A stretch of DNA of 64,000 nt from positions 2,464,001 through 2,528,000 of the forward strand of contig OZ243974.1 of assembly GCA_965214775.1 (NCBI GenBank), read 5' to 3'. The notes beneath the pieces were generated by a model. That model ran no database searches and had not been told where the DNA came from. It was given only the letters and a program-made list of their open reading frames with translations. Source of the stretch: Nitrosopumilus sp. (GTDB lineage: Archaea; Thermoproteota; Nitrososphaeria; Nitrososphaerales; Nitrosopumilaceae). The position numbers and the translations under genes are program-made. This document shows positions 8,296-49,126 of the stretch, in pieces. Each line of letters begins with the position of its first letter. The first letter of the stretch is position 1.

Positions 8296-8481
8296 TTACT
8301 TTTCCCCGGCAGTCACAACTATGCTCCTGTTCTTTATTAGAAACTTTAGGCCGTTCGGATCACCCAAGATCTCAAGTATGGGTTTTGGCACGCGACAGGT
8401 CATGCTCTGTGAGCCGTCACGGTTGTTGTTTGCGCTCAAGCTCACATGAAACTCCTTGGCATCTTTCTTCCAGCGCGTCAC
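8296..8481 (-). CDS. Small AbrB/swapped-hairpin-like DNA-binding protein (61 aa)
   Basis: From GTG 8481: VTRWKKDAKEFHVSL...SMTCRVPKPILEILGDPNGLKFLIKNRSIVV; TTTATAAA about 25 nt upstream. Confidence 0.6.
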   Translation of the reverse strand: MTRWKKDAKEFHVSLSANNNRDGSQSMTCRVPKPILEILGDPNGLKFLIKNRSIVVTAGEK

Positions 8482-8568
8482 GCATCTATGATGGCACGGC
8501 GTTTTTATAAATCTTAACATGACGGTTAATGACAAGCAATAAATGACCATCATGTTAATGATACGTGT

Positions 8569-8654
8569 GGCAGGATTGCTTAGCAAGGTTAAAGCGACAG
8601 ATTCAGGATCTGTATCTCTCGCCGAGATCGTGGGTTCAAGTCCCACTCCTGCCG
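8569..8654 (+). tRNA. tRNA with CAG anticodon (nominally Leu), long variable arm, G discriminator
   Basis: Acceptor GGCAGGA/TCCTGCC, D-stem GCT/AGC, anticodon arm ACAGA-TTCAGGA-TCTGT, T-arm GTGGG-TTCAAGT-CCCAC. Confidence 0.85.
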
Positions 8655-8718
8655 CTATTCTTGGTTGTCTTGGTTCAATATTAACTGTTAGTGGGGGATT
8701 CACGTAAGAGTTTACCCC

Positions 8719-9241
8719 TCAGGCGACGTTTCCAGTCAGGGTCTTGGCGACCATCTCACTCACGTTGCAACCTTGGGCGCGCCAGTTCATCGTGCATGTC
8801 ATCAGTACGGTGAACATCTCCATGCCCTCCATGGTACGGAGTCTCTGGAATATCTTGCGCGCAATTACGGACGGCCTCAGTATGCGCTCGGCTAGATTGT
8901 TGGTGGGCTCCATGCCCGGATACAGCACGAACGTGTACAGGTATTCTGAGGCATTCTCAAGCTTTGTGGCAAATTTTTTGCAACCTGCCTCCCTGAATGC
9001 TACGGCCAGCGCGCGTGTCTCGACTACCAGCATGTCGTGTTGTTGCTGCCTGACACCGTTCTTCTTCTCCTCCGGTGGTGGTGGCCCCAGCCCCTTGGCA
9101 AAAAGAAATTTTTTCTTGAGGGCATCATACAGTTCGTGGGCCTGCCGGGAAGTCTTGCCGGCGTCCTTGGCCTCCCGGAGTATGTGTGCCCAGCACCACT
9201 GCCTGATCTTGAATACGACATATACGCCGTACCCATCAACT
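8719..9241 (-). pseudogene. IS66 transposase, C-terminal half
   Basis: TVDGYGVY..QWCWAHILRE...EPTNNLAERILRPSVIARKI IS66 motifs. Confidence 0.88.
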
Positions 9242-9315
9242 GTGTCAGGTTTATCACTCCCAGGCAGCAGAACCCCCCTTAAATCAGAGCCGTTCATTGC
9301 AGGGGGGGAAGGACA

Positions 9316-10758
9316 GTGAGTGACACCGCAAAAAAGGCGTGGGGACGGCACCGGAGGCTGCTTGAGGATCCCGACGTGAGGCGGTGGTGCGACAACATCG
9401 CAAGGGGAAGCGTGGTGACGGCCGAGGTCAGGCTGGGCAGGCTCGGCATCTACTGTGAGAGGACCGGCACCACTCCCAGGGCCTTTGCGCAGGCCGGAGT
9501 CGACGACGTGAAGAAAGTGGAGGACATGCTGATGGATCACGTCTCGTTTCTGGAGGGCAGGGGATACGCGCCCTCGTACATAGCAGACATCCTCACGGCG
9601 CTGCGCTCCTGGCTGTCGTTCAACTACGTCAGGCTTGCCCGGAGGATAAGGATCAAGAATGCGGACATTCCGGTGACGCTGGAGGACGAAGTGATTCCGA
9701 CCAGGGAGAGGATCCAGGACGTGCTGGACTCGGCGCCGGCAAGGGAGCGCGTGTCGATATCGCTGATGGCCTTCTCAGGGGTGCGACCGCAGGTGCTGGG
9801 CAACCACCACGGCGAGGACGGCCTCAAGGTGAGGGACATCCCGGATCTGGAGACAGACGGCAACGACGTCTCCTTTGCCCGGACGCCTGCAAGGATAACC
9901 GTAAGGCCGCAGCTGAGCAAGGCGGGACACCAGTACTTTACGTTCCTGCCAGAGGCCGGGTGCAGGTACATGCAGGGATACCTCAGGGAGAGGATCGCGG
10001 GGGGCGAGAAGATCGGACAGGACTCGCCCATAATCACGTTCGTGAGGGGGTACCGCGCAAAGTCAGGCGGCAAGACGTGTCACGTGAGGACGGTCACGGT
10101 GGCCAAGGGGATCAAGGGCGCCTTTGGCATAATCATGAGGGAGCGGCCCTACGTCCTGAGGTCGTACTTTGACACGCAGCTGCTGCTTGCAGAGAGCAGG
10201 GGCGCGATGACGCACGCGTACCGCCAGTTCTTCATGGGCCACAGGGGCGACATCGAGGCAAGGTATACCACCAACAAGCACAGGCTTGCCGACGAGCTCG
10301 TATCGGACATGAGGGAGGCCTACGGGCGCAGCCAGGGGTTCCTCGTACCGGGCGCCGAGGGGGAGGAGGCGGCGGCATCAAAGGACAGAAGGGAGCTGCT
10401 GCTTGAGATGTGGAGGGAGCAGGCGCAGCTGTACGGAATCGACCCCGTGAAGATAAGGATAGAAAGGCAGGGGGCGTCATCATCATCGCAGGGCAAAAGA
10501 GCCGGGCAGGCAGCTGCCGCAGATGATCAGATAGGCGCCATCAAGGCGGCCATTCAAAGGATAATCAGGGGGGAGGGCGGGGCACAGCCACTGGCAGGCG
10601 GCAAAAAGCCATACGAGGGCAGGCTGGTCGACGGCGAGAAGGATCTCGTGGCGTGCATCGAGGACGGATGGGAGGTCATAAGGGAGCTGAACGGCGGCAA
10701 GGTCCTTCTAAGACGCAGCACCGCAGGCGGGAGGGCGCCCCGTCACCCCGGCCAGTGA
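9316..10758 (+). CDS. Tyrosine recombinase / site-specific integrase (archaeal type)
   Basis: SGVRP (R), LSKAGH (K), RPYVLRSYF (YxxR in place of HxxR), FMGH, EARY (Tyr nucleophile); N-terminal SAM-like region. Confidence 0.9.
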   Translation: MSDTAKKAWGRHRRLLEDPDVRRWCDNIARGSVVTAEVRLGRLGIYCERTGTTPRAFAQAGVDDVKKVEDMLMDHVSFLEGRGYAPSYIADILTALRSWLSFNYVRLARRIRIKNADIPVTLEDEVIPTRERIQDVLDSAPARERVSISLMAFSGVRPQVLGNHHGEDGLKVRDIPDLETDGNDVSFARTPARITVRPQLSKAGHQYFTFLPEAGCRYMQGYLRERIAGGEKIGQDSPIITFVRGYRAKSGGKTCHVRTVTVAKGIKGAFGIIMRERPYVLRSYFDTQLLLAESRGAMTHAYRQFFMGHRGDIEARYTTNKHRLADELVSDMREAYGRSQGFLVPGAEGEEAAASKDRRELLLEMWREQAQLYGIDPVKIRIERQGASSSSQGKRAGQAAAADDQIGAIKAAIQRIIRGEGGAQPLAGGKKPYEGRLVDGEKDLVACIEDGWEVIRELNGGKVLLRRSTAGGRAPRHPGQ

Positions 10759-10952
10759 CCCGGCCGGCCCTCCATTTTCTGGCACGCCATCCCGGACGTT
10801 GCGGAGGGCGGCGCGTTGATCAGCTCAGGCCGCCTCCATGATGCCTGCATCTGCCCCGTCCGAGATCTCCACGTGCAGACAGCAGTGGGGATTCCTCCTG
10901 AAATGCCAGACCGGACCGGATGACCACGATGCAACGCCATCCTCCCGGAAGC

Positions 10953-11021
10953 TGGCAACGGTTGCCAACTAGCGGGAACCTTTCTTCTCTGTAGTTGGCA
11001 ACGGTTGCCAACTAGCGGGAA
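10953..11021. repeat. 43-bp-period repeats with 23-bp palindromes, cluster 1
   Basis: TGGCAACGGTTGCCAACTAGCGGGAA at 10953 and 10996. Confidence 0.85.
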
Positions 11022-11151
11022 TCAGCAGATCCGACTGTACCTGAAGACGCGGCAGAACGCCACGTTTTGACGATCATCTGATCCGTAGCGAACAGGCACA
11101 AAGATCCATGAGGAGCCAAGCAGGGAGGAGAAAAAGGCGCATGTGTAACCG

Positions 11152-11440
11152 CCATTTGATCTCCGGCCTTGAGAGGATCAAAGCCGTGGTCGTCAAAGGT
11201 ATTGCCATGCTTGCCTGCACCACGACTCGGGATGCTCCGCCCGCATCACCCGTCCTGAGATCTTTTCCCGCAGGCCTTGCCCCCACAGGCTTTCATTGTC
11301 GTGCCGTTTGACTCGTCGTCCACCGGAAGAAGCTCCATGCCCCAAGCCACAGCCTGTCTGCAAGTCTCTTTGGGACGCCGGACACGGCTGCCCCGCTGCC
11401 GTGCCCACAGATGACCCCGGGCCATGCCTTTCGTACGGAT
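11152..11440 (-). pseudogene. Decayed AbrB-like gene, array module 1
   Basis: Minus frames give VRKAWPGVICGHGSGAAVSGVPKRLADRLWLG and ...LSRPEIK; frameshifted, stop lost; close paralog of module 2. Confidence 0.6.
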
Positions 11441-11559
11441 TCCGTGCGTCCAGAGCCTGGACAAACTCAGGGCGTGTCTTTGCAAGCTTTGCAAAAAAAC
11501 CTTGCAATCTTTGCAAAGACGTTCGTGGCAGGCTGACTCGCATTACCCTGTGGTTTCCC

Positions 11560-11850
11560 AAAAAACGAGACCAGAGCGCCCGGGCCCTCAACGAGGCCCC
11601 TGACCCCACACAGCCTTCCGGGGAGTCAGAGTCGTCCCGGTCCCTTATCTTCACCTGAGTGAAAAATTCCCTCAGGCCCCACACTGTCATTCCGGATCGA
11701 GGGCCGAGGCATTCTCGCGGGCTGAAATCACTACGATTAATCACAGATGACTGATCTCAAGACTTCACAATGATGTCATGTCTGGGGAAGGGGTCGAAAC
11801 TGTCAGAAAACATGGCAGGAACCAAAGCATGAGAAACAGAGTTGTAAACA
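11560..11850. repeat. Conserved hairpin-rich module core, copy 1 of 4
   Basis: GGGCCC hairpin-CTGACCCC-CCGGG..CCCGG hairpin-CACCTGAGTGAA..CCTCAG; recurs near 12988, 13915, 15278. Confidence 0.85.
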
Positions 11851-11901
11851 GCTGCCGGGAGCACGTAAGGTACAACATGACAAAGTGGAAAGAGATGTAG
11901 C

Positions 11902-11982
11902 GCGCACATCAAAAAATGGATCATGGTTTTGCCGCATCGTGCCTATTTCGATAAAAAACATCCCGTTTTCGACTGTGCGCAC
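11902..11982. repeat. ~80-bp dispersed MITE-like repeat
   Basis: GCGCAC...GTGCGC ends; inverted homologs at ~54397-54474 and, partially, 43797-43840. Confidence 0.6.
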
Positions 11983-12315
11983 CATGACCGGCCATCCTTC
12001 GGGCATTCTGCCTTACCGCATAATCCTGCCTGAAATTTGAAACTTGGCAAAAAAATCACCAAGATGATCAGCGGATCCCCGGCCAAGAGGGCCAGGGATC
12101 ATCGATGATGGGAGGTTGCCCCCGGGCGGCACTGCCTGCCGGGATCTTGGTGATCATGTCCACATATCGCATCCCGGGGATGGGGCAAGCTCTTGCCTTG
12201 GCGATCCCCCGATGATATCTGCGTTTATCCTGCGAGTTCCCCTCGGGCAGGCAGCAGTGAGTATTTTCCTAAAGCGCCAAAGGCCGAGCCGGATGACCGC
12301 AATGCAACACCGCAA

Positions 12316-12430
12316 TCTTCCCTGTAGTGGACTACAGTAGCCCACTAGCGGGAACTTTTCTTCCCTGTAGTGGACTACAGTAGCCCACTAGCGGGAACTT
12401 TTCTTCCCTGCTACTGGCAACCGTTGCATG
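12316..12430. repeat. 43-bp-period repeats with 23-bp palindromes, cluster 2
   Basis: TAGTGGACTACAGTAGCCCACTAGCGGGAACTTTTCTTCCCTG at 12325 and 12368, plus a degenerate TGGCAACCGTTGCA unit. Confidence 0.85.
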
Positions 12431-12438
12431 TGTAATCA

Positions 12439-12745
12439 TCATTTGATCTCCGGCCTTGAGAGCGGATCAAAGCCGGGATCATCAAAGGAATTGTCGTGTC
12501 TGGGCCTGTCCCGCGCCTTTGAGGGCGCGCCGTCCACACCGCCCGTCTTGAGATCCTTTTTTGCAAGCCTTGCCTTCATCGGCTTTGCCATTGTCGTGCC
12601 GTCTGACTCGCCCGTCAGGAGAAACCCCTCCCCCCCTCTATGCTCCAAGCCACAGCTTGTATGCAAGTCTCTTTGGGACGCTGGACACGACTGCCCCACT
12701 GCTGTGCCCGCAGATGACTCTGGGCCATGTTTTTTGTACAAGTTA
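12439..12745 (-). pseudogene. Decayed AbrB-like gene, array module 2
   Basis: QKTWPRVICGHSSGAVVSSVPKRLAYKLWLGA* then a frameshift into ..RLAKKDLKT..DPLSRPEIK*. Confidence 0.62.
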
Positions 12746-12822
12746 CATGCATTCAGAGCTTGAAACAAACTCAGGGCACGTTTTTGCAAGCTTTGCAAAA
12801 AAACCTTGCAAGCTTTGCAAAG

Positions 12823-12940
12823 GTAACAGGTTAGCCCCTGCCTAGAGTTGGAGTTGCATCCCTTGCCGGCCAGGCATGAAAATCACAACTGCAGGCAGAT
12901 TCATGCCTGATTGCTGCTTAGGCAGGGGCTAACCTGTTAC
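12823..12940. mobile_element. 118-bp MITE with IS66-like GTAA ends
   Basis: Perfect 22-bp TIR GTAACAGGTTAGCCCCTGCCTA; 8-bp TSD TTGCAAAG (12815-12822, 12941-12948); empty site visible in the paralog at ~11511. Confidence 0.92.
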
Positions 12941-12987
12941 TTGCAAAGACATTCGTGGCAGGCTGACTCGCATTACCCCGTGATTTT

Positions 12988-13280
12988 CCAAAAAACAAGA
13001 CCAGGATGCCCGGGGCCCTCAACGAGGCCCCTGACCCCACACAGCCTTCCGGGGAGTCAGAGTCGTCCCGGTCCCTTATCTTCACCTGAATGAAGAACTT
13101 CCTCAGACCCCACACTGTCATTCCGGATCGAGGGCCGAGATATCCTCGCTGGCTGAAATCATTACGATTAATCACAGAGGACTAATCTCAAGATTTCATA
13201 ATTATGTCATGTCTGGGGAAGGGGCCGAAACTGTCAGAAAACATGGCAGGAACCAAAACATGAAAAACAGAGTTGTAAAC
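12988..13280. repeat. Conserved hairpin-rich module core, copy 2 of 4
   Basis: Near-identical to 11560-11850. Confidence 0.85.
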
Positions 13281-13425
13281 AGCCATTGGGAGCACGTAAT
13301 ATACAACATGACAAAGTGGAAAAAGATAGGGCTTGACAGGTGTCACATATGGTCCAAAAGCCCCCAGATACACCAGATTCACGCCTCCCTTGTGGATGAG
13401 GAGAAAAGAGACGTAAGGCTGATGT

Positions 13426-13734
13426 CTATTTGATCCTGAATTTTTCCAAGGCACTCGTCCTAGGGGCGGCCTCTCCGGCGGGGGAGCCTTCGTTCTTTTG
13501 TCTGCATTCCCTCATTGCCTCATCAAAGACCCGCTCATATCGGTCAATGTCTGTGAGGTCCTTTTTTGACAGGCTCTTTCCACCCGGTGTCAGCACGATT
13601 TTGCCGCCAAGGTCGTGGAACCGTATGTGTTCGCCTGATCTCAAACCTAGGCTTTGTACCATCACGGACGGAACGACCACAAAAAATGAACAATTGTCCT
13701 TGATGCGGAGCCTTCGCTCATGTATTTTTTCCAT
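13426..13734 (-). CDS. AbrB/MazE-like DNA-binding protein, array module 3 (102 aa)
   Basis: ERRLRIKDNCSFFVVVPSVMVQSLGLRSGEHIRF swapped-hairpin pattern; CTTAAA TATA about 26 nt upstream of ATG; ends ..EKFRIK. Confidence 0.75.
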   Translation of the reverse strand: MEKIHERRLRIKDNCSFFVVVPSVMVQSLGLRSGEHIRFHDLGGKIVLTPGGKSLSKKDLTDIDRYERVFDEAMRECRQKNEGSPAGEAAPRTSALEKFRIK

Positions 13735-13769
13735 GCCGTCAGCAAATGTTGGATATTCATTTAAGACTC

Positions 13770-13855
13770 GGTGCCAAAGGCGCCAAAAAATGGCGCCAAA
13801 GGTGCGTTTGGTACCTGCCCGACAGGGGCCAAAGGCGCCAAAAAATGACGCCAAA
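13770..13855. repeat. Six GGCGCCAAA-type direct repeats upstream of module 3 AbrB
   Basis: Copies at 13770, 13779, 13792, 13825, 13834, 13847 (two blocks, 55-bp period). Confidence 0.85.
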
Positions 13856-13914
13856 GGCCCTAATCTCCGAGGGCCAGTAACGGAATTTCAACTCGCATTA
13901 ATACACAAAACACG

Positions 13915-14195
13915 AAAAACGAAACCAGAACACAAGGGCCCCCGAAGGGCCCCCTGACCCCCCACAGCCTTCCGGGACGCCGAACCGTCCCAGTCCCTTA
14001 TCTTTACCTGAGTGAAAAATTCCCTCATATCCCATTGAATCAGGCAATCGTCTTTGGATAGACAGGATGAAATCATGCCCGCCAACCGGGAATCATTACA
14101 GTTAACCCCGGATGATTGATTTCAAAATTAGTGTCATGTCCGGAGGAATATCAAGAACCATGGCAGGAATCAAGAACATGAAAAACAGAGTTTAT
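13915..14195. repeat. Conserved hairpin-rich module core, copy 3 of 4
   Basis: GGGCCC-CCGAA-GGGCCC, CTGACCCC, GGGACG/CGTCCC, ACCTGAGTGAAAAATTCCCTCA. Confidence 0.8.
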
Positions 14196-14567
14196 CAATT
14201 CTGAGGATATTGGCTATTTCCCTTTCTATCCTGTCATGATACATCATGTGTCTCGGAATCTTTTGAATCTTTTGCACGCCAAAAATCTGTAATTTTTAAT
14301 CACTCATTGGCTGTCATAGGAATCATCCGGGGAGATCATCTTCCCAAGGACAGGACGGGGGCCTTGTCGCCTGTGGTTGCAGGATGCCCTAAAAGCAGAG
14401 TCCGCAGCTCCGGATAAAGCCGTCCCGGGCATGTCAGATACAACATGGCAAAGCGGAAAAACTTGGCTTTGAGCAGTGTCACGTGTGGTCAAGGAACCCA
14501 AAGGTTCACGAGATCCTCGCCGGCCTTGACGAAAAAGAGGGACGGATGTCAGGACTGGTGTCATTTG
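14112..14567 (+). pseudogene. Decayed unknown ORF ('X') convergent with the next AbrB gene
   Basis: Peptide blocks conserved among modules (SE[DG]IGYFPFYPV..SRNLLN; HV[RI]YNM[AT]K; CH[IV]WS) interrupted by stops and frameshifts. Confidence 0.5.
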
Positions 14568-14827
14568 ATGTGGAGTTTTTTGAGCTTTTCTGCAGACAGA
14601 TCCGTCTCCCTCATCATGTCGTCCAGAACCCTGTCGTACTTGGTCCTGCCCTTCTCCGGGACATCTGCTGTATGCGCGGGGATCAGCTCCAGCCTGTCCG
14701 GGTGCGCCCCGAACTCGACGAGCTGGCCCTCGGCAATGCCGAGATCGTCTGCCAGCGCCTTTGGAACCGTAACGATGAGGCTGTCGCCCTGCCTGCGCAC
14801 CTTTCTGTAGTGTTTTCTTTCAGACAC
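14561..14827 (-). CDS. AbrB/MazE/SpoVT-family DNA-binding protein, array module 4 (88 aa)
   Basis: YRKVRRQGDSLIVTVPKALADDLGIAEGQLVEF classic AbrB motif; GTG start about 23 nt after CTTAAA; ends ..KKLHIK. Confidence 0.85.
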   Translation of the reverse strand: MSERKHYRKVRRQGDSLIVTVPKALADDLGIAEGQLVEFGAHPDRLELIPAHTADVPEKGRTKYDRVLDDMMRETDLSAEKLKKLHIK

Positions 14828-14879
14828 ATACTGTAACCGTGTTCTTTGATTTAAGGGCCAGAGTTTTTTTGCAAAATGT

Positions 14880-15222
14880 ACATAATGTAGCTTTTCACTA
14901 TTTTCAGGCTTCAAAAAGCTACATTTTCACTACTTCCGGTTCAACATAATGTAGCTTTTCACTATTTTCAGGCTTCAAAAAGCTACATTTTCACTACTTT
15001 TCAAATCACTATTTTCACTACTTTCACTACTTTTCAAATCACTATTTTCACTACTTTCACTACTTTTCAAATCACTATTTTCACTACTTTCACTACTTTT
15101 CAAATCACTATTTTCACTACTTTCACTACTTTTCAAATCCATACTTTCACTATTTTTTGCACTCACAAATCCATACTTTCACTATTTTTTGCACTCACAA
15201 ATCCATACTTTCACTATTTTTT
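14880..15222. repeat. TTTCACTA-based tandem repeats upstream of module 4 AbrB
   Basis: 33-bp unit TTTCAAATCACTATTTTCACTACTTTCACTACT about 4 times, plus duplicated flanking variants. Confidence 0.9.
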
Positions 15223-15277
15223 GCCCCATGATTTCAACTCCCACACACCAGACCTCTCGCATTATACCACCACACAC

Positions 15278-15550
15278 GAGAAACGAGACCGGCCCGCCCG
15301 GGCCCCTACGGGGGCCCTTGACCCCCGACAACCTTCTGGGACGTCAGAGCCGTCCCAGCCCCTTGAGTCCTACCTGAATGAAGAACTTCCTCAGACTCCA
15401 TACCATAGCTAAGCCGACGAGATAAAACCAACCATCCACGGGCTATCATTAACCACAGATAACCAATTTTAAAATCATAATATCATGTACGGAGGAATGT
15501 CAAGAATCATGACAGGAGTCAAATGACCATGAAAACACGGAGTTTACAAA
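15278..15550. repeat. Conserved hairpin-rich module core, copy 4 of 4
   Basis: GGGCCCC-TACG-GGGGCCC and CTGGGACG-N7-CGTCCCAG; homology to copy 3 continues to ~15655. Confidence 0.8.
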
Positions 15551-15706
15551 ATCTGAGGGTATTGGCTATTTCCCTTTCTATCCTGTCACGATGTACTACA
15601 CGTCTCGGAATCTTTTGAACTTTTTGCCCCTCAAGATTCATGATATTTTTAATCATTCTTTGGTTATCATCAGATCATTTGAGAATATTAGACTTTATGC
15701 GTAATC

Positions 15707-16900
15707 GGGGTTGTCCAAAAAATTTCCGCAAAACGACCGACAAGCTTATAGATCATGAGCGCACGGCGCCGAAAATGATTTTGATCTGCCGATCCTGGAT
15801 ATCCCAATGAGCAACAACAGGAAGGACACGGACTATAACCGCCTTTACGAGCAAAAGCGCAGGCAGGAGAGCTCCCGCAAGAAGAGGACAAGGAGGAACC
15901 TGGGAAAGATCGTACGCAGGGTGGCCAAGAAGATGGCCGCCGAAACGGGAATCGATGCCGGCCTTGCGTGGTCTGCCATACGCATTGCGATCCTCAGAAT
16001 CGAGAATCGCCTGTCCTACAGGAGGATGGTCACGCACCTGGAGTCAAACCCGGACGATCTCAGGAGATGCGGCCTGAGTCGTACGCTCTCCAAGTCGACG
16101 CTGCACAACAGGATGACCATGCTCTGGAGAATGGGCAAGGACTTTATGGACGAGGTCGTACTGGCCATGTCCGAAGGCGAGCGCATAGCGGACCTGCACG
16201 GCGACTCGACGGGATTCGGCCTCCGCAAGTACAAGAGCTGGAGCCACGCAAAACATGGGGAGGTGACCGGACACGACTTTGCAAAACTGCACGCAATTGC
16301 TGCAATCGGGGGCAAGATACTGTCATTTGAGGCCACGCCGGGCACGTCGGGGGACTCGCCGGAGTTTGCCCGCATGATGAGCCGCATCCCCAAGGGCGGA
16401 TACGGAATCGTGGCGCTGGATTCGGCATACGACTCGTACAAAAACTGCGAGCTGATTGCAAAGAGCGGCCGCGGACCTGTCATAAAGCCGGCAAAGGGGC
16501 ATGAAAAGCCACGCGGGTTTGGCGCCCGGGCCAGGATGCTGCAGTGGCTGCGTGACAGGCCAGACGAGTTCTGGCAGGCCTATCACAAGAGGAGCCAGGC
16601 AGAGTCCCTGTTCTCGGTAATGAAGGAAAGGGCTGGATCCGTCCTGCGTGCAAAGCTGGACGGAACCATCACTGTAGAGCTGTTCGCTCGCGTGTTGTGC
16701 TACAACCTTACGGTGTAAATCATCACAAATCCCGTACTGTTGGACCGCAACACTACCGTAAGGTATGGCCTGCATGGATATTTGCGTTGCTGTATGCGCC
16801 GTTCTGGCCGTCCGGGGCCGCCAAGTGCTCTATATTGCCGTCTGAGACTGCCTATATCGGGGGCAAATTGGCAGCCTGCGGAAAAAAATTGGACAACCCC
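15707..16900 (+). mobile_element. IS5/IS4-like insertion sequence
   Basis: TIRs GGGGTTGTCCAA.. / ..TTGGACAACCCC; no TSD seen. Confidence 0.8.
15807..16718 (+). CDS. DDE transposase
   Basis: GDSTG, KLHA, LDSAYDS, YHKRSQAESLFSVMK. Confidence 0.88.
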   Translation: MSNNRKDTDYNRLYEQKRRQESSRKKRTRRNLGKIVRRVAKKMAAETGIDAGLAWSAIRIAILRIENRLSYRRMVTHLESNPDDLRRCGLSRTLSKSTLHNRMTMLWRMGKDFMDEVVLAMSEGERIADLHGDSTGFGLRKYKSWSHAKHGEVTGHDFAKLHAIAAIGGKILSFEATPGTSGDSPEFARMMSRIPKGGYGIVALDSAYDSYKNCELIAKSGRGPVIKPAKGHEKPRGFGARARMLQWLRDRPDEFWQAYHKRSQAESLFSVMKERAGSVLRAKLDGTITVELFARVLCYNLTV

Positions 16901-16908
16901 ACACGCGG

Positions 16909-17949
16909 TGTTTCATATGAAAATTAGTTCCGCCCCTCATTAGTATCCTTCTCCATCCATTTGGGGTCGCTTTTCCTGATCGCTTCTGTGGCCTCCCGGC
17001 TCCGGAACGCCATTCTGGGAGTCTCTGCACGCTTGATGTCAAGCGACCAGTGCGTCCTGTGCTCGTTGTAGAACTCGATGAACTCGTCTACCTTCTCAAA
17101 GTGCGTCAGCTCCTTCTCAAGCGTTCTGAACCACCTCTCCAACTTGCCGTTGGTCTGGGGGTGATGCGGACGCGAGTTGAGCAGGACGATGCTGTGCTCT
17201 AGCAGCTCGTTCTCAAACAGCGTGGGCGTCCAGCTGCCCCTTGGGGTACCGCGCCTGGCTGACGTAAAGCAGCTGCCGTTGTCCGAGAGTACCTGGGCCG
17301 GCGTCCCGAACTCTTTGATGGCCTTGCGCAGCACCAGGACTGCGTTCTCCGAGGTCGCGCGCTCAAAGACGCCAAATCCGGTTATGCACCGCGAGGAATC
17401 GTCAAGATATGCCACCAGATTGAGTTTTTCTAGGCGTGAATCCTTCATTTCGTGCCAGTCCACGTGCCACATTGCATTGGAGTACTTGCGCTCATAGCGC
17501 AGCCACTTGAGCTGTCTGGGTCTGGCAGGCGAGCCGTCCGTTATTCCCTCGACCTTCATGATCCTGTATACTGCATGGTAGCTTATCTGCCTGCCTGCGG
17601 CCCTCATGCGCAATGCCAGCCTCTCCACACCCGACGGCATCCGCGCATATGCGTCAAGGACCGCCTCCACATCCACGGGATCCGTGTCCATGCAGGGCCT
17701 TCCTGCCCCGCTCCGTGGCAGGACTGTGCCGGAGCTGCGGAATCTGGCCCATATCTTCCTGACATACCTGTCGCTGATGCCCAGCTCCCGGGCTATCTGC
17801 TTTGCAGGCACGCCCTTTTTCCTCTGCTTTTCTATGTACCGGAGCGACTTTTCCTCCAATTTTTTCCTCACGTTTTTTGATCGGTACAGCCTAAAATAAT
17901 CCTTCAAAGTACGCCTGATCTTAGGCGGAACTAATTTTCGTATGATAGA
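16909..17949 (-). mobile_element. IS481-family insertion sequence
   Basis: 26-bp imperfect TIR TGTTTCATATGAAAATTAGTTCCGCC; 15-bp direct repeat CAACCCCACACGCGG at 16894-16908 and 17950-17964. Confidence 0.88.
16924..17871 (-). CDS. IS481-family (rve) transposase
   Basis: HTH, WHVDW, LDDSSR, LSDNGSCF, HPQTNGKLERW; start set at GTG inside the TIR-bounded interval. Confidence 0.9.
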   Translation of the reverse strand: MRKKLEEKSLRYIEKQRKKGVPAKQIARELGISDRYVRKIWARFRSSGTVLPRSGAGRPCMDTDPVDVEAVLDAYARMPSGVERLALRMRAAGRQISYHAVYRIMKVEGITDGSPARPRQLKWLRYERKYSNAMWHVDWHEMKDSRLEKLNLVAYLDDSSRCITGFGVFERATSENAVLVLRKAIKEFGTPAQVLSDNGSCFTSARRGTPRGSWTPTLFENELLEHSIVLLNSRPHHPQTNGKLERWFRTLEKELTHFEKVDEFIEFYNEHRTHWSLDIKRAETPRMAFRSREATEAIRKSDPKWMEKDTNEGRN

Positions 17950-18000
17950 CAACCCCACACGCGGCGGTAGCCTTTTTAGAAACATGTCCGTAGTCCTGCC

Positions 18001-19413
18001 ATGATCAGGCGCCTTGCCGTAACAGGACTTTTCCTCGTTCTGGCAGCAGCTGCCGCTGCCACCGCGCACGCAGAGGTGCCACCGCCCCCGCTAAAGCAGC
18101 TTGCAGCCGGCGTCTCTCCCGACGGGGTCCTGTGCAGGGAGGGGCTCGTGCTGGTCGTGCGCGACACCGGCGGCGCAGTATGCGTGAGGGATAACACTGC
18201 AGAAAGGATGGGGTGGACCGTAACTATACCAGATGCCGGCACCGCCGAGTCCACGCACCTGCTGCTGCAGGCCGGCGGCCTGGTGCCAGTCGAGATTTCG
18301 GACTATTCTGGGATCGTGTCAGCAAACAACGACTTTGCAGTCGACTTTTACTCACACGTAGCCAGGCAGGAGGGCAAAAACATCGTATTCTCACCGTGGA
18401 GCATCTCCAGCGCCTTTGCACTCGCACACGAGGGGGCGGGGGGCGACACGAGGGACGAGCTCACAGATGCGTTCGGGTTTCCGGAGGAAAAACGCCTGCA
18501 GTTTGGCTCGGCAATGGTGGATCTGAACAGGCCCGACACAGAGTACCGGCTGTCGGTTGCAAACGCACTGTGGCTTGCAGAATGGCTCGAGCCGCTAGAG
18601 GAGTACGTGCAGACCGCAAGGATATACTACGACAGCGGCGTGGAGATGGTGGACTTTGGGTCCGGTGACGCGGTCAAGACGATTAACGGGTGGGTGTCAG
18701 ATAACACCGGCGGCAGGATAAAAGAGGTCATGGCGCCCGGCTCCGTCGGCGCCGCAACGCCGCTGGTCATAACGAATACAGTATACTTCAAGGGCGACTG
18801 GGTGAACACGTTTGGCGGAGGCAGTACCATCGAGGACTACCCGTTCTGGGCGACCCCCGACAAAAAGGTAACGGTTCCGATGATGTACACAAAGGATGTT
18901 GGCTACAGGCACGCAAACGTGGGCACGCACCAGATCCTTGAGATGCCGTACGTGGGCGACCGCATCTCCATGCTAGTACTGCTGCCAAACGAAAAGGGCG
19001 GGATAGGCGAGCTGGAGGGGATGCTGAGCGCCGAGAGCCTCGAGGAGTGGAAGGGAGATCTTGTAGATAAAATACTGCAGGTCTATTTTCCAAGATTCAG
19101 CCTTGACATCTCGTACAATCTAAGAGAGGACCTGTCCGCGATGGGCGTGACCTCGATCTTTGGCGAGGGGGCCGACCTTTCTGGCATCGCCGGGGACGAG
19201 CGGCTGCACGTGTCAGACGCAGTCCACAAGGCGTTCATAAACGTAAACGAAAAGGGGACGGAGGCCGGGGCCACAACTATAATAGCATCTAGTTCGTCAG
19301 GGCCTCCGACGTTTACAGCAGACCACCCGTTTGTCTTTGTCATACAGGACATGGAGACGGGCAACATACTGTTCATCGGAAGGCTGTCCGACCCGTCCCA
19401 GAGCGGCAGGTGA
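18001..19413 (+). CDS. Secreted serpin (serine protease inhibitor) with N-terminal Cys-containing domain
   Basis: Signal peptide, NIVFSPWSI, NTVYFKGDW, hinge EKGTEAGAT, FTADHPFVFVI..ILFIGR. Confidence 0.93.
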   Translation: MIRRLAVTGLFLVLAAAAAATAHAEVPPPPLKQLAAGVSPDGVLCREGLVLVVRDTGGAVCVRDNTAERMGWTVTIPDAGTAESTHLLLQAGGLVPVEISDYSGIVSANNDFAVDFYSHVARQEGKNIVFSPWSISSAFALAHEGAGGDTRDELTDAFGFPEEKRLQFGSAMVDLNRPDTEYRLSVANALWLAEWLEPLEEYVQTARIYYDSGVEMVDFGSGDAVKTINGWVSDNTGGRIKEVMAPGSVGAATPLVITNTVYFKGDWVNTFGGGSTIEDYPFWATPDKKVTVPMMYTKDVGYRHANVGTHQILEMPYVGDRISMLVLLPNEKGGIGELEGMLSAESLEEWKGDLVDKILQVYFPRFSLDISYNLREDLSAMGVTSIFGEGADLSGIAGDERLHVSDAVHKAFINVNEKGTEAGATTIIASSSSGPPTFTADHPFVFVIQDMETGNILFIGRLSDPSQSGR

Positions 19414-19805
19414 GCCGGCACATGGTACGCCACATGTGGGCGTGCCGGCACACGCTGTCCTGCACGGCCGCTGCAGACTATGGATGCACAGCTATCCCGG
19501 CAGGCAACGGCTCGCCCTGGCCGCCTTGATCTACGTCATGTGTGTGGTGCCCAGCTTGGACAATCACTTATCCGTGCGATCCCGACCTCACCGCTGCCCA
19601 GCATGCTGTCCGAACACCATCCTCCGGTGCATCCGTGAGTCATATCTGGGAAGACTGCACCTGTGAGAGGTCAAGGTCGTTGCAACATGCAGGCACGAAT
19701 CTTGTTGCAAGATGATTTGGGCATGGCTGAAAACCGGGGTGGCCCAGCCGATTACCTGCGCCCCATGCAAACGTCTTTTATAAAACACCATGATAATCTT
19801 AAGGC

Positions 19806-22800
19806 ATGAACCAAGCAGTCGCATGTCTTGCCATCCTGCTGCCAGTCTTGCTCTCCGTTCCGGCTTTGTCATTCTCAGAGTCAGGTGAGGTACAAGACAA
19901 CCTGTACAAGTTCGATGACGGCTTTTATGAAAAGATCCAGCACATGCAGAACATGACATCGCATGGAAGGGCAGACAGTTCGGACAACGCAACACTGGCT
20001 GCACATTCCGTAATAATAGTCACAGATGACGGATACGAAGACGGATTGGAGCAAACGCTAAGGGAGATGGGCTCGCGGGACATATTCAAGTCAAAGAGCC
20101 TGGACTTTCTCATCGCCGACGTCCCGGTGAACAGGATAGCGGAGCTGGCAGGCTATGATCACGTCTACAAGCTTGGAGACGGACATGGGGAAATGACATC
20201 GTCGGCATCACCGTCAAGACTACCGCCGGCACTGACACTGGCGCAGGCCAAGGCCGTAGTTGGCGCCACCAACGTAGGCTCCGACGTGTATCCGTATACT
20301 GGCAGGGAGATCACCGTTGGACTGATTGGTACGGGCACGGATTTTACACACCCTGATCTGCAAAACAAGAATGCTGCCTCGCTCCTATGCACCCAACTCC
20401 AATGCATTAATGCTTCACTGCTGGCCGGTACCAACCGTGCCACTTCGACTTCCGCAGTCATAGCATCCAACAGCACCAACCCCGCAATGGCGGGGATGGC
20501 ACCAGACTCCATGATACACGACGCTCGCTTAGCTGGCGTGACTCACGTGGGTGAGAGTTCCGTGGCAAAAAATACCTTTGCCAGGGCACTTGATGAGATG
20601 ATGACCAGCGATATCACTGTGGCACTTTCAATACTGGCAAATACTGAAAGTTATGGATGCAACGACTATTCTGCCCTCACCATTGTCACCGACAGGGCGG
20701 TACACGAGGGCTTGAGCTTTTCCATGGCCATCGGAAACAAACCAGATAACACGGCGGCGTTTCCCCCGCCACACATACAGAAGCTGGCATGCGGCTTTAA
20801 CTACATCAGCGCAGGTGCAGTCGACAAGGACAGAATCCTGTGGAGTGACAGCGTTCCCGGACCTGCCCAGTTCAACACCCCTGGCGGCGACTCACCCAGA
20901 ATAAAGCCCGAGATAACCGCAATCGGCGTAGATCTTGACCTTGCACGGGCCGCAGATCGCAGAAATATGATAAACCGTGACTATGAAATAGACAGCGGCA
21001 CGAGCTTTGCCACCGCCTTTGTGGCAGGCGCCAGTGCCCTGATCCTAGAAAAGCAGCCGGACTACCGGCATCTGGAGATAAAGTCCGCACTGCTGCTCGG
21101 CGCAGACTGGCAGGCAGACACGCCGGCGACGGCAGCAGACTATGATAACCGGAGGGCCGGGATATACGATACCATGAACCGGTACGGCTTTGGCATACTC
21201 AACGCAACGAGATCACTTGACTATGCCAACGACAACCAGTACCCGAACGTCCTGTACGACCAAAGCTCAGGCGACTTTGATGCAAACTCGTACAGGATCT
21301 ACGCAGGCGCAGGCGAGCAGGTAAAGGTGCTGCTGTCCTGGCTGGTGCATCCGAGAGGCACGGTACTGTCGCCCACCCTTCCAATCGGCAGCCCCCACAT
21401 CCAGCTTCCAAGCCAGTACCACAACTATGACCTGGCGGTGACGTTTCCCAACGGCGTGACAAGGACGAGCGACTCTGACGTCCAGAACAACGAGTTCGTC
21501 GTGTTTGACGCGCCGGAGACCGGATTCTACACCATCACCGTGAGCTCCGACGGGACGCTGACGACTGCCATCGGCGAGCCGTACACCCTGGCAAGCACGC
21601 ACGGGATAGACAAGTTCCCATACGACCTCGTCGTCCCGGTCACGGAGTTCGCAGACGACTTTGAGTCGGACCTCTCAAAGTGGGACCTGTCCGGCGACTC
21701 TGACTGGGAGATCGGGGACCCCGACGAGGACGTGCCCGGCGAGAACAGCCGGACAAACCAGGCGCTCATATCGAGCAACTGCGACACTGACTGCATCGCC
21801 ACGACATCCTCGACGTTTGACACGCAGGACGCGCTGACCGTCTCCTTTGACAGGTTCGTTGACTCCAGCGTCGATGCCGGGGAGGGCCTGTTTGTAGAGT
21901 ACTCTGCAGATGGAACCAACTGGATCAATCTTGCAAGCTATACCCACAACAACCGCGAGGACAGCGGCTCGTGGAGCAGCGAGTCCCTGTCCCTGGACAT
22001 CACGGAGGACACCGCAAAGATCAGGTTCGTGGCAAAGTCCAGCTCCTCAAGCGAGCACGTCGAGATAGACAATGTTGCAGTCATGGAAAGTGACGGAGGC
22101 GGACCCTCGGACACGACTGACCCCGTAATCACCGCGCCCGCCGACGTCACGGCCGAGGCCACCGGCGTGCTGACTGCCGTATCCATAGGGCAGGCCACTG
22201 CCATCGACAATCTGGATCCCGACCCGGCGATAACAAACGACGCACCAGAGTCGTTTCCCATAGGCGACACCACAGTCACGTGGACTGCCACGGATGACTT
22301 TGGCAACACGGCCACTGCCACCCAGACTGTTACGATACAGGACACCACGCCGCCCTGGATCACGGCGCCTGCCGACCGTACCGCAGAGGCCACCGGCGTG
22401 CTGACCGTGACATCCATAGGGCAGGCCACTGCCATCGACATTGCCGATCCCGACCCCACAATAACAAACGACGCACCCGCGTCGTTCTCGCTAGGCGACA
22501 CGGTAATCACATGGACTGCCACAGATGATTCGGGCAATGCGGCCACTGCCACCCAGACTGTTACGGTTCAAGATACCACGCCGCCGAGCATCACGGCGCC
22601 TGCTGACCATACAGCAGAGGCCACCGGCGTGCTGACCACAATATCAATAGGGCAGGCCACTGCCACCGACAATCTGGATCCCGATCCTGTCATCACGCAC
22701 GACGCACCAGAGTCATTCCCGCTCGGCGACACCATAGTGACATGGACTGCCACAGATGACTTTGGCAACATGGCGACTGTCACCCAGACTGTTACGATAC

Positions 22801-25292: not shown

Positions 25293-25620
25293 CTTGTGCG
25301 ATCACGGCGGGCCCGGCCTGCGGCAAGATCCTGTACTGGCCAGTAAGGATTCTCGAAGTGTTTCATGATCAGACGCCCCTGCAAACGGACGATGACATTG
25401 AAGGATTTGTGACTGCCGGCATGCCCCACAGGCGGCACTGCCTGCCGGGGCCTTTGCTGCCGCGCATTCCGCGCGGTATCTTCCGGAGGGGGCAAGGCTC
25501 TTGTCGCGTATTGGTAGAACGCAATCCAAAACAATTTTAAGCCGACGCATCCGTTGATACGGTGAGCATCTTGATGGGATTCAAACGTGTGGGGGTTTCA
25601 TCGCTTGGGTGTGGTAAACC

Positions 25621-26550
25621 GTAACTGGTTTATCATAATACGGAAAGTTCGTATCCACTACGACCCTGGCCCTGCTGGGTGCGGCCAGCGTGTGGACGCC
25701 GGTCGTGGAGCCGTCCTTGTTCTTGCCCACTATTACCCATATGCGGGCCGTCCTGCCGTTGTATGGCATGGCAGTCTCGTTAATGTGCAGATAATCAGAA
25801 TCCTTGATGGCCTGCTTGATACCCTTTACGCTGGGCTTTATTGCCTTGGTGCAGGCCCTCAGGCACTGCAACACGCCTGCCTCTGAGACATCCATGTCCA
25901 GGATTTCTGAGCACATTGTGGCCGTTGCCTGTATGGAGGCAGGTGCCATGTGCATTGAGGTTATCATCCCCGTAATGTTTGGTCCAAACTCGGTTCCCTG
26001 CACGTTCCAGTCCCTGTCATCCTCGATACACACGTGGCCGCAGTCGGCGCATTCGCGTTTGTATGCGGTGTGCTCTGTCGTGACCGGTTTGGGCTTCTTG
26101 GGGATCTCAGTCACGGTCTTTGAGAACAACTTTTCGGGCTTTTTCATGTTGGTGCTGTTGCACTTGTCGCACTTTTTGGGGCAGTGCTTTACAAACTCGG
26201 TCGGTTTTCTCTTGTGTGATACTCCCTTGTGTCCCGGTTTGCGGCCCGGTTTTGCCTTTGCAGATGCCGGTACGTTGCCTGATGCCTTTGCAGCAGCAGT
26301 CTTTTTCTGTCTGGTAGGAATCGAGTTCTGCGAGGAGGGGGTGTGCGGGTTCTCGTAATATTTGATGTGCTGTTTGAGCTGCTGGTTTTCTGCCGTCAGC
26401 AGCACGACCTGTGTTGCAAGCTCGGCCTTCTCTGGCATCTTTGACTACTACCTGCTGCAGATCGGCGATGGTTTTCTCATTCTTTCGGCACTCGGCTATG
26501 AGACGTGCAATCTCGTCGCGCAGTATCTTGACCTCCGAGCCTGATGACAT
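25621..26550 (-). pseudogene. IS66 transposase, N-terminal half
   Basis: Coiled coil, PSS..KPGRKPGHKG, CDKC/CADC Zn finger, LHINET (DET Asp changed to Asn); frameshift near 26440. Confidence 0.87.
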
Positions 26551-26677
26551 GCATTTTCCTAGGTACTACTATCTTATAGATCGGGTGGTCAGAAAGAATT
26601 CACCAAATAGGTAAGGGGTAAACTCTTACAGATGGGCAGTTCAAATCCTATTTATAATCTCGTGATCGCGATACGCT

Positions 26678-48136: not shown

Positions 48137-48721
48137 AAAACAACAGTATGAACCAGACTATATCAAAATTTTCACGGCTTTTTTTGTTGTTCTGATTCGT
48201 TTGAATTTGCCGTTGAGTTTGTTTTTCCTGCAGTTTTTACCAGATATTTGAGGCAGTGTTTCTGTTTCAAACAATTCCAGTCTTGCGCAGAGATTTGATG
48301 CAGCTGATCGTGCCGTAAGCCGTTTGTACTCTGCGCACAAACTTTGTTTTGATCGGCATTCGTTGGCAGCAAAATTCATGCCTGAACTTGCAGAGACTGC
48401 CTGCTGTGATTCAACGTATTTTCCAATATCAAGCCCCTTTCTGGCATCTATGCAGTTGAACCTGGTGGGAGAAAAGAGAGGCAGAGGCAGGGGATGGCAG
48501 GGATGCAGGGGAGTCTCAGATGAGCGTCCTTTAGTTTTTCCGGGCGTACAAGCTGCAATTTTTCGGTTCAGTTGGCGCTTGATTCACTCTCTGTCATGTA
48601 ATAGTGCAATTCCGTATAGCACTCTACGCAGTATTTCTCATAGCTTGTATGCTCACAGTCATAGACTTTTCTTACATCGTTGTTGCATTTTGCGCATGTG
48701 GGCGGCATGATGACAACACGT

Positions 48722-49126
48722 CTAGGATTTTGCTATTTTGATGCCGCCTAATGCCAGTTGGATTGCGGCAGGAACAAACATCATTGCAATTGATGCCGTC
48801 GGGTCGTCTCTATCAGCATCAACAGTAGCTGCCTCTGCCGGTGCAGGCATTGCCAAAACAACCAGGCCGCCAATTACTATCAGAATGCCTGAGATAACTA
48901 TCATTATTCCCAATCCCTTTGAGGGTTCCTTTCTTGCAATGAAAAATGCAATGATTGGTAAAATTAACGCCGGACCTCCAAGGCCCATTCCTCTTTGCAT
49001 GTGATCAAGAGGCAAAAATCCGTGATCGCTGTCTGATAATGACATGGCAACTGCAACATCGGCAGCATAAAGTACAAGCAGTCCGATTGCAATTCCTGCA
49101 AGGATTAGTGCAGCAGACAGTGCCAT
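48722..49126 (-). CDS. Small membrane protein (about 4 TM)
   Basis: Hydrophobic segments; TATA upstream. Confidence 0.75.
   Translation of the reverse strand: MALSAALILAGIAIGLLVLYAADVAVAMSLSDSDHGFLPLDHMQRGMGLGGPALILPIIAFFIARKEPSKGLGIMIVISGILIVIGGLVVLAMPAPAEAATVDADRDDPTASIAMMFVPAAIQLALGGIKIAKS

Follow-up and report, generated by a model that had tools for sequence, protein, structure and literature searches.

R388-like plasmids carry an origin of transfer (oriT), an accessory protein, a coupling protein and a relaxase in this order, and in the trwA-oriT module of R388 itself the accessory binder is a ribbon-helix-helix protein and the relaxase an HUH enzyme. Plasmid repressors can also be paired with small RNAs, as in pIP501 CopR/RNAIII, or act with heptad arrays, as the omega protein does. 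For archaeal conjugation we know of no relaxase and no origin of transfer. Integrative conjugative elements (ICEs) of thaumarchaea have been described with VirB4-like and VirD4/TraG-like ATPases, a prepilin peptidase and TFIIB, and the main text of that description, supplements aside, does not name AbrB or SpoVT and states that its authors detected no candidate relaxase (PMC6563490). In this study we analysed a 64,000-nucleotide stretch of the genome of Nitrosopumilus sp. (contig OZ243974.1), called the window here and providing the coordinates below unless another genome or locus is named. Directly downstream of an integrase gene in this window, between about 10760 and 15690, lies an array of four units, each with an AbrB-like gene, a block of private repeats and a core with GC palindromes, together with remnants of an open reading frame (ORF X). 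Our tentative reading, to which we give a little less than an even chance, is that the units are control cassettes, each type with its own AbrB protein and operator, accompanied by a small RNA, and that a 16.4-kb integrative island might have its control region here.

Judged by sequence comparison, the units are of three paralogous types, type 1 being present twice, and each type comes from the distal end of a thaumarchaeal conjugative DNA-transfer cluster. The ancestral segment seems to have consisted of a VirD4-like ATPase gene, a gene for a winged helix-turn-helix (wHTH) nuclease, an AbrB gene convergent with it and then repeats. Its nuclease part is decayed; what is maintained are the type-3 and type-4 pairs of AbrB gene and operator and a short element that we call Block 2. 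Repeat finding over positions 9500-17000 gave four-copy families at spacings of 1431, 922 and 1365 nt and, within the array, a 300-nt repeat pair of 92% identity. The cores of all four units align across ~320 nt, from the box CTCGCATTA onward, and a profile of the four matches its window copies at E values of 4e-82 to 7e-97 (nhmmer). All cores are on the + strand: core 1 (type 1, 11530-11861, E 6.6e-97) has its GC palindromes at 11571-11687 and is without Block 2, core 2 (type 1, 12960-13292) is 91% identical to core 1, core 3 (type 3, 13885-14210) has its palindromes at 13925-14040 and core 4 (type 4, 15250-15562) at 15289-15406. An earlier sequence-only reading had placed four head-to-tail units at these positions, each with private repeats, and had called modules 1 and 2 close paralogs and modules 3 and 4 diverged. 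The repeat families and profile matches bear this out, with 91% identity between modules 1 and 2 and 70% between modules 3 and 4. The first two modules are a simple and recent tandem duplication.

The AbrB-like genes all lie on the - strand. AbrB3 (type 3, 13426-13734, 102 aa, ATG at 13734) and AbrB4 (type 4, 14561-14827, 88 aa, GTG at 14827) are intact. AbrB1 (11012-11400) and AbrB2 (12439-12798), both of type 1, are broken relative to an intact homologue of 135 aa (L037:14426-14833) in a related genome of a different genus (3.2 Mb): six-frame reading against this homologue shows several frameshifts and a lost stop in AbrB1, and AbrB2 has one frameshift. This is the distribution of intact and frameshifted copies that had been proposed. 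The proposed AbrB identity stands best for AbrB4, which exceeds the PF04014 cutoff of 24.7 bits (MazE_antitoxin, 34.6 bits, 1.8e-08) and also matches TIGR01439 (AbrB, 1.1e-05). AbrB3 falls below that cutoff (MazE_antitoxin, 17.2 bits, E 0.0049), and the 135-aa protein of type 1 has no Pfam match and takes its AbrB label from the family alignment. TATA-like CTTAAAT boxes precede the probable start codons of AbrB3 and AbrB4 by ~24-35 nt, where such boxes had been expected. The operator-like repeats are TTGCAA hexamers in type 1 (11474-11520), two ~36-nt units of the form GGCGCC-N7-GGCGCC in type 3 (13762-13860) and, in type 4a, an array with units of 9, 15, 24 and 33 nt (14860-15230); 15 TTTCACTA words stand in the 450 nt ahead of core 4. 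Across two genomes the repeat words go with the module type, namely TTGCAA with type 1, GCCAAAGG/GGCGCC with type 3, TTTCACTA with type 4a and TGTACATA with type 4b. The ratio of non-synonymous to synonymous substitution rates (dN/dS) indicates that AbrB3 and AbrB4 are under purifying selection: it is 0.12-0.66 in 10 pairs of AbrB3- and AbrB4-type genes, 0.17-0.5 for AbrB3 against its paralogues and 0.41-0.47 for AbrB4. In aligned terminal units the mean column identity is 86-92% for the core with Block 2 and 60-68% for the AbrB coding region.

The rightward decayed ORF noted in each unit turned out to be a fragment of a nuclease-like gene. Its copies align over 50-75 residues with the C-terminal end of a protein of 187 aa whose gene is intact only at 611482-612042 of the host genome (G000, 2.83 Mb in one contig), at a place that we call locus B. 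ORF X1 (11778-11900, +) is a truncated stub of the end of this gene, and ORF X2 (13209-13433, +, 74 aa) has the nuclease-like C-terminus as its last 52 aa and lacks the catalytic-looking D/ExE region. ORF X3 (14340-14560, +) is a pseudogene of the last ~75 aa with frameshifts and a stop, recovered by tblastn as pieces in two frames. The conserved segments TDLVAYD and VEIES are missing from the stubs. By these alignments ORF X is a dead remnant of the 3' end of a conjugative-element gene for a protein with wHTH and nuclease-like parts, and the motif common to the 2/3 and 3/4 junctions is the convergent stop overlap of ORF X and AbrB. The structure model of the 187-aa protein (pLDDT 87.4) has an N-terminal MarR-like winged helix and a restriction-endonuclease-like C-terminal domain, for which the fold matches (BstEII, NucS/EndoMS, EcoT38I, R.BspD6I and Hjc) are mutually consistent and weak (Foldseek E of 1.4e-3 or higher).

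At locus B the nuclease-like gene follows a TrwB/TraG-like (VirD4-like) coupling ATPase, and the same locus encodes a VirB4/HerA-like ATPase, a prepilin peptidase, a TFIIB homologue, an actin-like protein (ALP) and an AbrB homologue (28.6 bits against PF04014). Locus B therefore has the signature set of the thaumarchaeal ICEs as given in the main text of their description (PMC6563490); the island in the window holds an integrase and remnants of the end segment only, and shares with the ICEs the tyrosine recombinase, one paralogue of which abuts a tRNA gene. A contig scan found relatives of the nuclease-like gene at 80 metagenome loci (L047-L126). The ATPase is directly upstream at 71 of them, and most of the other 9 contigs start near the gene. 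Sequence of 700 nt or more beyond the gene was available at 66 loci, and at 62 of these a convergent ORF of 70-140 aa has its end no more than 45 nt from that of the gene; PF04014 matches 30 of 48 convergent ORFs (45 metagenomic and 3 of the array family). Locus-specific direct or inverted repeats lie no more than ~130 nt upstream of the start of the convergent ORF at all 8 loci inspected among these 66, with a spacing of 9 or ~24 nt in 5 of the 8. As many of the contigs are near-duplicates, the counts overstate the independence of the loci. Within this survey, the order of ATPase, nuclease and convergent AbrB with locus-specific repeats is a conserved trio in marine metagenome contigs, and the protein with its wHTH and PD-(D/E)xK-like parts is a candidate DNA-processing partner of archaeal conjugation. 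The main text of the ICE description, again without its supplements, contains neither the ATPase-nuclease-AbrB-repeats end segment nor its arrays nor Block 2 (PMC6563490).

In modules 3 and 4 the core has two conserved parts. Its GC palindromes (Block 1) are conserved in sequence. Block 2, the most conserved stretch of the unit, measures ~85 nt (68-99 nt among copies) and is closed by a 9-bp stem, P1 (rTGACAGGA/TCCTGTCAy), around an inner AGGG/CCCT hairpin. It occupies 14158-14239 in module 3 and 15507-15591 in module 4, both on the + strand, where a covariance model scores 93.1 and 100.8 bits. Module 3 has a CTTTTG/CAAAA hairpin at 14269-14285 and a T5 run at 14293-14297 on the 3' side of Block 2; module 4 has a TATA-like ATTTTAAAATCATAATAT at 15466-15483, ~26 nt before Block 2, and a T5 run at 15646-15650. 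The Block 2 copies of module 4 and of the third unit in another host array (array A, below) differ at 3 of 85 nt, and the adjoining AbrB genes have a synonymous divergence (dS) of 0.80. Among 18 sequences both sides of P1 have changed in 5 of its 9 pairs, and 95.3% of cells are paired, compared with 42-61% in slid controls. The covariation score of P1 is 0.166 against 0.061 in shuffles and was reached by 0 of 500 of them; the compensatory changes are carried by distant copies in other genera. Block 2 does not seem to be protein-coding, since a 1-nt indel right after a common ATGAAAA puts types 3 and 4 in different frames with the bases conserved, one copy has a 2-nt deletion and several lack the ATG. 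Small ORFs in the core were rejected on both strands for similar reasons (starts not conserved, frames that differ by type, a 2-nt deletion in one copy). These features suggest a new, strongly constrained RNA-like motif. It has no Rfam family, and neither have the cores at E<=1; the nearest match, to rli24 in other genomes, had 27.5 bits against a gathering score of 100. A C/D box small RNA was considered and rejected, because the conserved CUGA is ~25 nt from the terminal stem and the C-box-like word is not conserved.

With the covariance model, Block 2 was found in 9 of 151 genomes of the family, from 5 of 24 genera, in 8 copies in each module-bearing genome and in 1-2 copies elsewhere. Around the copies in other genera, 10 ORFs were scanned and only two transposases and one BNR protein were recognised. 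One of these copies lies 149 nt downstream of a 23S rRNA gene on the same strand (L135:1501-1581), and a copy in another genome lies between two tRNA genes (L128:1311-1394). A search of the genome for an antisense target of Block 2 gave chance-level matches only: two of 15-16 nt lie ~1 kb from two other integrases inside a long ORF, and a third in a non-coding stretch just 3' of the integrase at locus D, and we judged all three to be due to chance.

The modules belong to a wider family. We found 10 cores in the host genome, four in the window array (W1-W4), three in array A (A1-A3, 577.6-580.2 kb) and one each at loci B (610.5 kb), C (1216.7 kb) and D (1596.4 kb), with a partial eleventh copy, C2, near 1219.8 kb that was seen only with a longer query and a regional profile search. 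In the related genome, BLAST with the core as query found 15 matches. Scans for core words and for the Block 2-core pattern gave 0 matches in viral contigs, 0 in metagenome contigs and one other genome in the genome collection. Tree and identity matrix of 18 cores, labelled by locus (W and A to I) and numbered in array order, give three clades that cut across loci: type 1 (W1, W2, A1, E1 and F1), type 3 (W3, A2, G and C) and type 4 (W4, H, B, E3, D and I). Core W3 is 96% identical to A2 and 70% to W4. The types follow each other as 1, 3, 4 in arrays W, A, C and E and as 1, 3 in F, and in no array is this order reversed; only losses and duplications are seen between arrays, and the number of modules varies from 1 to 4 by locus. 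This fixed order speaks against ongoing capture of units. Two mosaic units, a type-3 core with type-1 (TTGCAA) repeats (G, L039:9568-9892) and a type-4 core next to an AbrB3-like fragment (I, L041:10032-10510), indicate that the operator/AbrB part and the core recombine separately. Loci D, F and H have their core behind an integrase that belongs to a second subfamily and is 41-47% identical to that of the window.

The integrase itself (9316-10758, +, 480 aa) has no match in Pfam, NCBIfam, PHROG or PDB sequences. Its AlphaFold model (pLDDT 75.7) has the two-domain fold of Xer, Cre and lambda Int and gave 43 PDB fold matches at E<=0.001, with XerA at the top (1.7e-06), IntI at rank 3, and XerH, Cre and lambda Int; it fits IntI about equally well as XerA and Cre. 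The gene next to the array is a true tyrosine recombinase by this fold search, as had been supposed. Some of its 1400 homologues, among the matches listed, carry the source name 'site-specific integrase', and across 27 homologues R157, K202, R282, H309 and Y317 are invariant, and these residues may be candidates for the catalytic set of tyrosine recombinases (R..K..H-x-x-R..H/W..Y). The island borders lie in one copy of an IS66-like insertion sequence (IS), whose two halves are 8704-9256 and 25617-26629 and whose transposase gene is split into pieces at 8719-9256 and 25581-26438. At the left junction, attL (9238-9256), the IS ends in CAACTGT and the island begins with GTCAGGTTTATCA; at the right junction, attR (25617-25635), AAACCGT is followed by AACTGGTTTATCA and the IS66 copy resumes. 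An uninterrupted IS reads CAACTGTAACTGGTTTATCA across the insertion point, and the intact copy at 2076222-2077774 of the host genome is continuous through the point of the left junction. Comparison of both junctions with the uninterrupted IS shows that 9257-25616 is a site-specifically inserted island of 16.4 kb. The crossover site is 58 nt upstream of the integrase gene, and cores lie at neither junction. Within the island are the integrase gene, the array of four modules, copies of IS elements and genes for a serpin (18001-19413, +) and for a subtilase/HYR/LamG protein of 1828 aa (19806-25292, +); it is without transfer genes. A copy in the related genome is 99.9-100% identical with the same ends in a different target, compared with ~90-96% in the remaining matched stretches of the two genomes, which points to a recent transfer of the island between genera.

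Several further observations concern the island and its integrase family. An IS481-like copy at 16909-17949 is missing from the otherwise identical island of the related genome; this element looks recently active, as its seven copies in the host genome are 99.6-100% identical. There are 12 tblastn matches to the integrase family in the host genome. One paralogue, 79% identical and located at 653-654 kb, begins just after the 3' end of a tRNA (...CCTTCCGGTCCA; 654515-654680), and from this the usual target of the family seems to be a tRNA gene, the window copy lying instead in an IS66 transposase gene. We found no tRNA-Leu-derived att repeats in the modules, where only IS ends matched, and, in a search for the far border of the locus B element, no repeats of at least 9 nt of the tRNA end upstream of the integrase at 654 kb within 606-610.5 kb. 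Serpin and giant HYR/subtilase genes are multi-copy in the host genome and several are near module loci (for instance at 1223-1226 kb, beside array C).

The array has also been interrupted by other elements. A 118-nt hairpin insertion with a perfect 22-nt inverted repeat (12823-12940), between the operator and core 2, is what sets module 2 apart from module 1. Contig depth there was 3777 against 173 and 142 in the adjoining bins (run X1), far above the flanks, and we take the insertion to be a multi-copy element like a miniature inverted-repeat transposable element (MITE). An Rfam match to mir-210 in module 2 falls on this hairpin and is spurious. An IS of the DDE_Tnp_1 family with 24-nt terminal inverted repeats (15707-16900, Pfam) truncates the tail of module 4. 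Palindromic repeats of ~45 nt (CTGGCAACGGTTGCCAACTAGCGGGAAC and a paralogous variant) lie 3' of the broken AbrB1 and AbrB2, as two units left of module 1 (10932-11021) and at 12308-12420, where 12308-12397 is the paralogous block; they occupy the position that the nuclease stub has in modules 3 and 4. A further small repeat element probably lies at 11913-12182, between modules 1 and 2: this stretch has an 85% match at 48717-48989 of the host genome and other genome matches, and it also matches, inverted, sequence 3' of two other integrase paralogues.

How might such an array work? The intact AbrB proteins of modules 3 and 4 would be small swapped-hairpin DNA binders, each expressed from a TATA box of its own, with the repeats of its type, immediately upstream, as operators. 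Block 2, with its own TATA-like box and oligo-T stop, might be a small RNA gene on the + strand. As a repressor bound to its own repeat array, each AbrB would then govern both its own expression and that of the core RNA, which would be read from a divergent promoter. The several regulator/operator specificities on the island might match several types of conjugative element and provide cross-regulation or immunity. The array may be the panel of specificities already suggested for it, as the repeat type goes with the AbrB and core type. The proposed arrangement resembles pIP501 CopR/RNAIII and the omega protein in having a small repressor, an iterated operator and, as predicted here, an adjacent short structured RNA gene with promoter and terminator of its own. 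It differs from these systems in that no replication gene is controlled and no antisense target was found.

A number of results weigh against the control-cassette reading. The GC hairpins first proposed exist as short palindromes, which fold no more stably than shuffled sequences (z -0.25 to -2.4) and show no covariation. The covariation of P1 comes from few lineages (x127, the related x131 and x132, and an outer A-U/G-C swap); the P1 structure was derived from the same sequences, and co-evolving inverted repeats of a DNA site would give the same picture. Neither module 1 nor module 2 has Block 2, and a search of 71 metagenomic ATPase-nuclease-AbrB loci found it at none of them. Block 2 cannot therefore be a partner that AbrB always requires; in other genera it occurs in stretches of 3.6-9 kb without AbrB or integrase matches. 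The proposed RNA has its promoter, strand and ends predicted from the letters of the DNA, and binding of AbrB to its operators is proposed by analogy. The arrays may also descend from one ancestral array, in which case their fixed order would reflect a single event that was copied and not a repeated constraint.

A bolder reading would make the units origins of transfer. The repeats and palindromes would be the cis site of oriT-like cassettes, AbrB the accessory binder and the nuclease the nicking enzyme, a proposal that we consider rather unlikely, and we would give no better chance to the idea that sites with dead nucleases are kept so that intact elements of several types can mobilise the island in trans. 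It would fit both the gene neighbourhood and the recent move between genera, as the repeats and AbrB recur beside the nuclease and VirD4-like ATPase in the metagenomic loci (71/80 and 62/66), the order of the trio resembles the layout of R388-like plasmids and the island, present in two genera at 99.9-100% identity, combines an integrase with cargo and has no transfer genes, as in integrative mobilisable elements. Like R388 trwA-oriT, the segment has a small binder by repeats and palindromes beside a coupling-protein gene, but its binder has an AbrB fold and not a ribbon-helix-helix, its enzyme is PD-(D/E)xK-like and not an HUH relaxase, and its host is archaeal. Neither a nick site nor a relaxase fold nor an HUH motif was found, the nuclease gives weak fold matches (E 1e-3 to 3e-2), its gene and that of AbrB converge and do not share an operon, and the strong constraint on Block 2 with its TATA box and T-run would be left unexplained. 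The main text on thaumarchaeal ICEs can be read either way, as it offers no relaxase candidate but allows that archaeal conjugation may transfer double-stranded DNA (PMC6563490). In its fullest form the proposal would have the trio as the missing DNA transfer and replication (Dtr) or oriT-like module of thaumarchaeal conjugation, with the PD-(D/E)xK-like protein as relaxase analogue and the island as an archaeal integrative mobilisable element, which we find equally doubtful. The units might instead be decaying debris, non-functional remains of recombination between co-resident conjugative elements that were copied with the island. The frameshifted AbrB1 and AbrB2, the stubs left of every ORF X, the MITE and IS insertions, some partial cores and a genome riddled with IS copies would all agree with this, but debris should not contain intact AbrB3 and AbrB4 types with dN/dS of 0.12-0.66, nor a Block 2 that is near-invariant where synonymous sites are saturated and that is retained in 5 of 24 genera, and we regard it as improbable. 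Somewhat less probable still is a partition site or replication origin, with AbrB-bound centromere-like or iteron arrays and the GC palindromes as origin of the excised island. The long arrays of 9-nt words (the 15 TTTCACTA of module 4) do resemble omega heptad arrays and parC iterons, and the conjugative element of locus B has an actin-like ALP gene; the island, however, has no Rep, ParA or ParM gene, three to four serial origins or centromeres would be unusual, and no 1.3-kb circle was seen, the contig joints being ambiguous.

The AbrB/MazE fold also brings to mind toxin-antitoxin systems, in which the AbrB proteins would be antitoxins of the nuclease, kept as orphan anti-addiction genes. 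Like AbrB, MazE and VapB antitoxins and transition-state regulators they have the swapped-hairpin N-domain (PF04014, TIGR01439) and a layout that suggests autoregulation through promoter repeats. Profile matches to MazE_antitoxin and 'addiction module antidote', the long antitoxin-like C-terminal tail and the persistence of AbrB3 and AbrB4 in an island where the nuclease partner is dead would speak for such a role. We think it very unlikely, as no co-directional toxin is present and the partner gene is convergent and not in an operon with AbrB; the tie of that gene to the VirD4-like conjugation ATPase (71/80 loci) suggests DNA processing. A type III system of the ToxIN kind was rejected as well, since no conserved same-strand ORF follows the module-4 repeat array and core and the frames differ by type. 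Least credible, with next to no chance in our estimate, is the proposal of the sequence-only reading that the adjacent recombinase built an integron-like stack or serially captured mini-replicons of ~1.3 kb. The locus does look like an integron in that head-to-tail units, each with a palindromic element, follow a tyrosine recombinase whose model also matches IntI, and the number of modules varies between loci (1 to 4). Yet the crossover site is at the island ends, the units have promoters of their own and a leftward gene, there is no attC-like site, and ORF X is a stub of a conjugative gene. An iteron mini-replicon would need a Rep-like gene, and the island has none. The module order, which in an integron should vary between related arrays, is constant, and the cores cluster by position type, an outcome that the same reading had named as evidence against itself. 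At some loci single cores have no integrase within the 20-kb stretch examined, and three close paralogues of the window integrase (78-80% identical) have no modules downstream. Clear circle joints were absent from the contigs of 4 runs over 8400-17000, a weak test, as the fragments were short and none spanned the array. Joints at which a contig skips ahead or goes back had short sides of 20-54 nt and may come from paralogous arrays, so they are uninformative on circles and on module number.

If the units are only regulators, the locus would be a neat example of modules that have decayed and been duplicated within a mobile island. This island, derived in part from the conjugative trio, carries eukaryote-like cargo (serpin and HYR-subtilase) and has recently moved between two genera of Nitrosopumilaceae. 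If the oriT reading were true, the island would keep transfer sites of three specificities, each with its AbrB accessory protein, along with a new small RNA, and would ride on several types of conjugative element, which would explain the identical copy in another genus. A nuclease-like gene, an AbrB-fold gene and locus-specific repeats beside a coupling ATPase form a trio that bears on the missing relaxase and oriT of archaeal conjugation.

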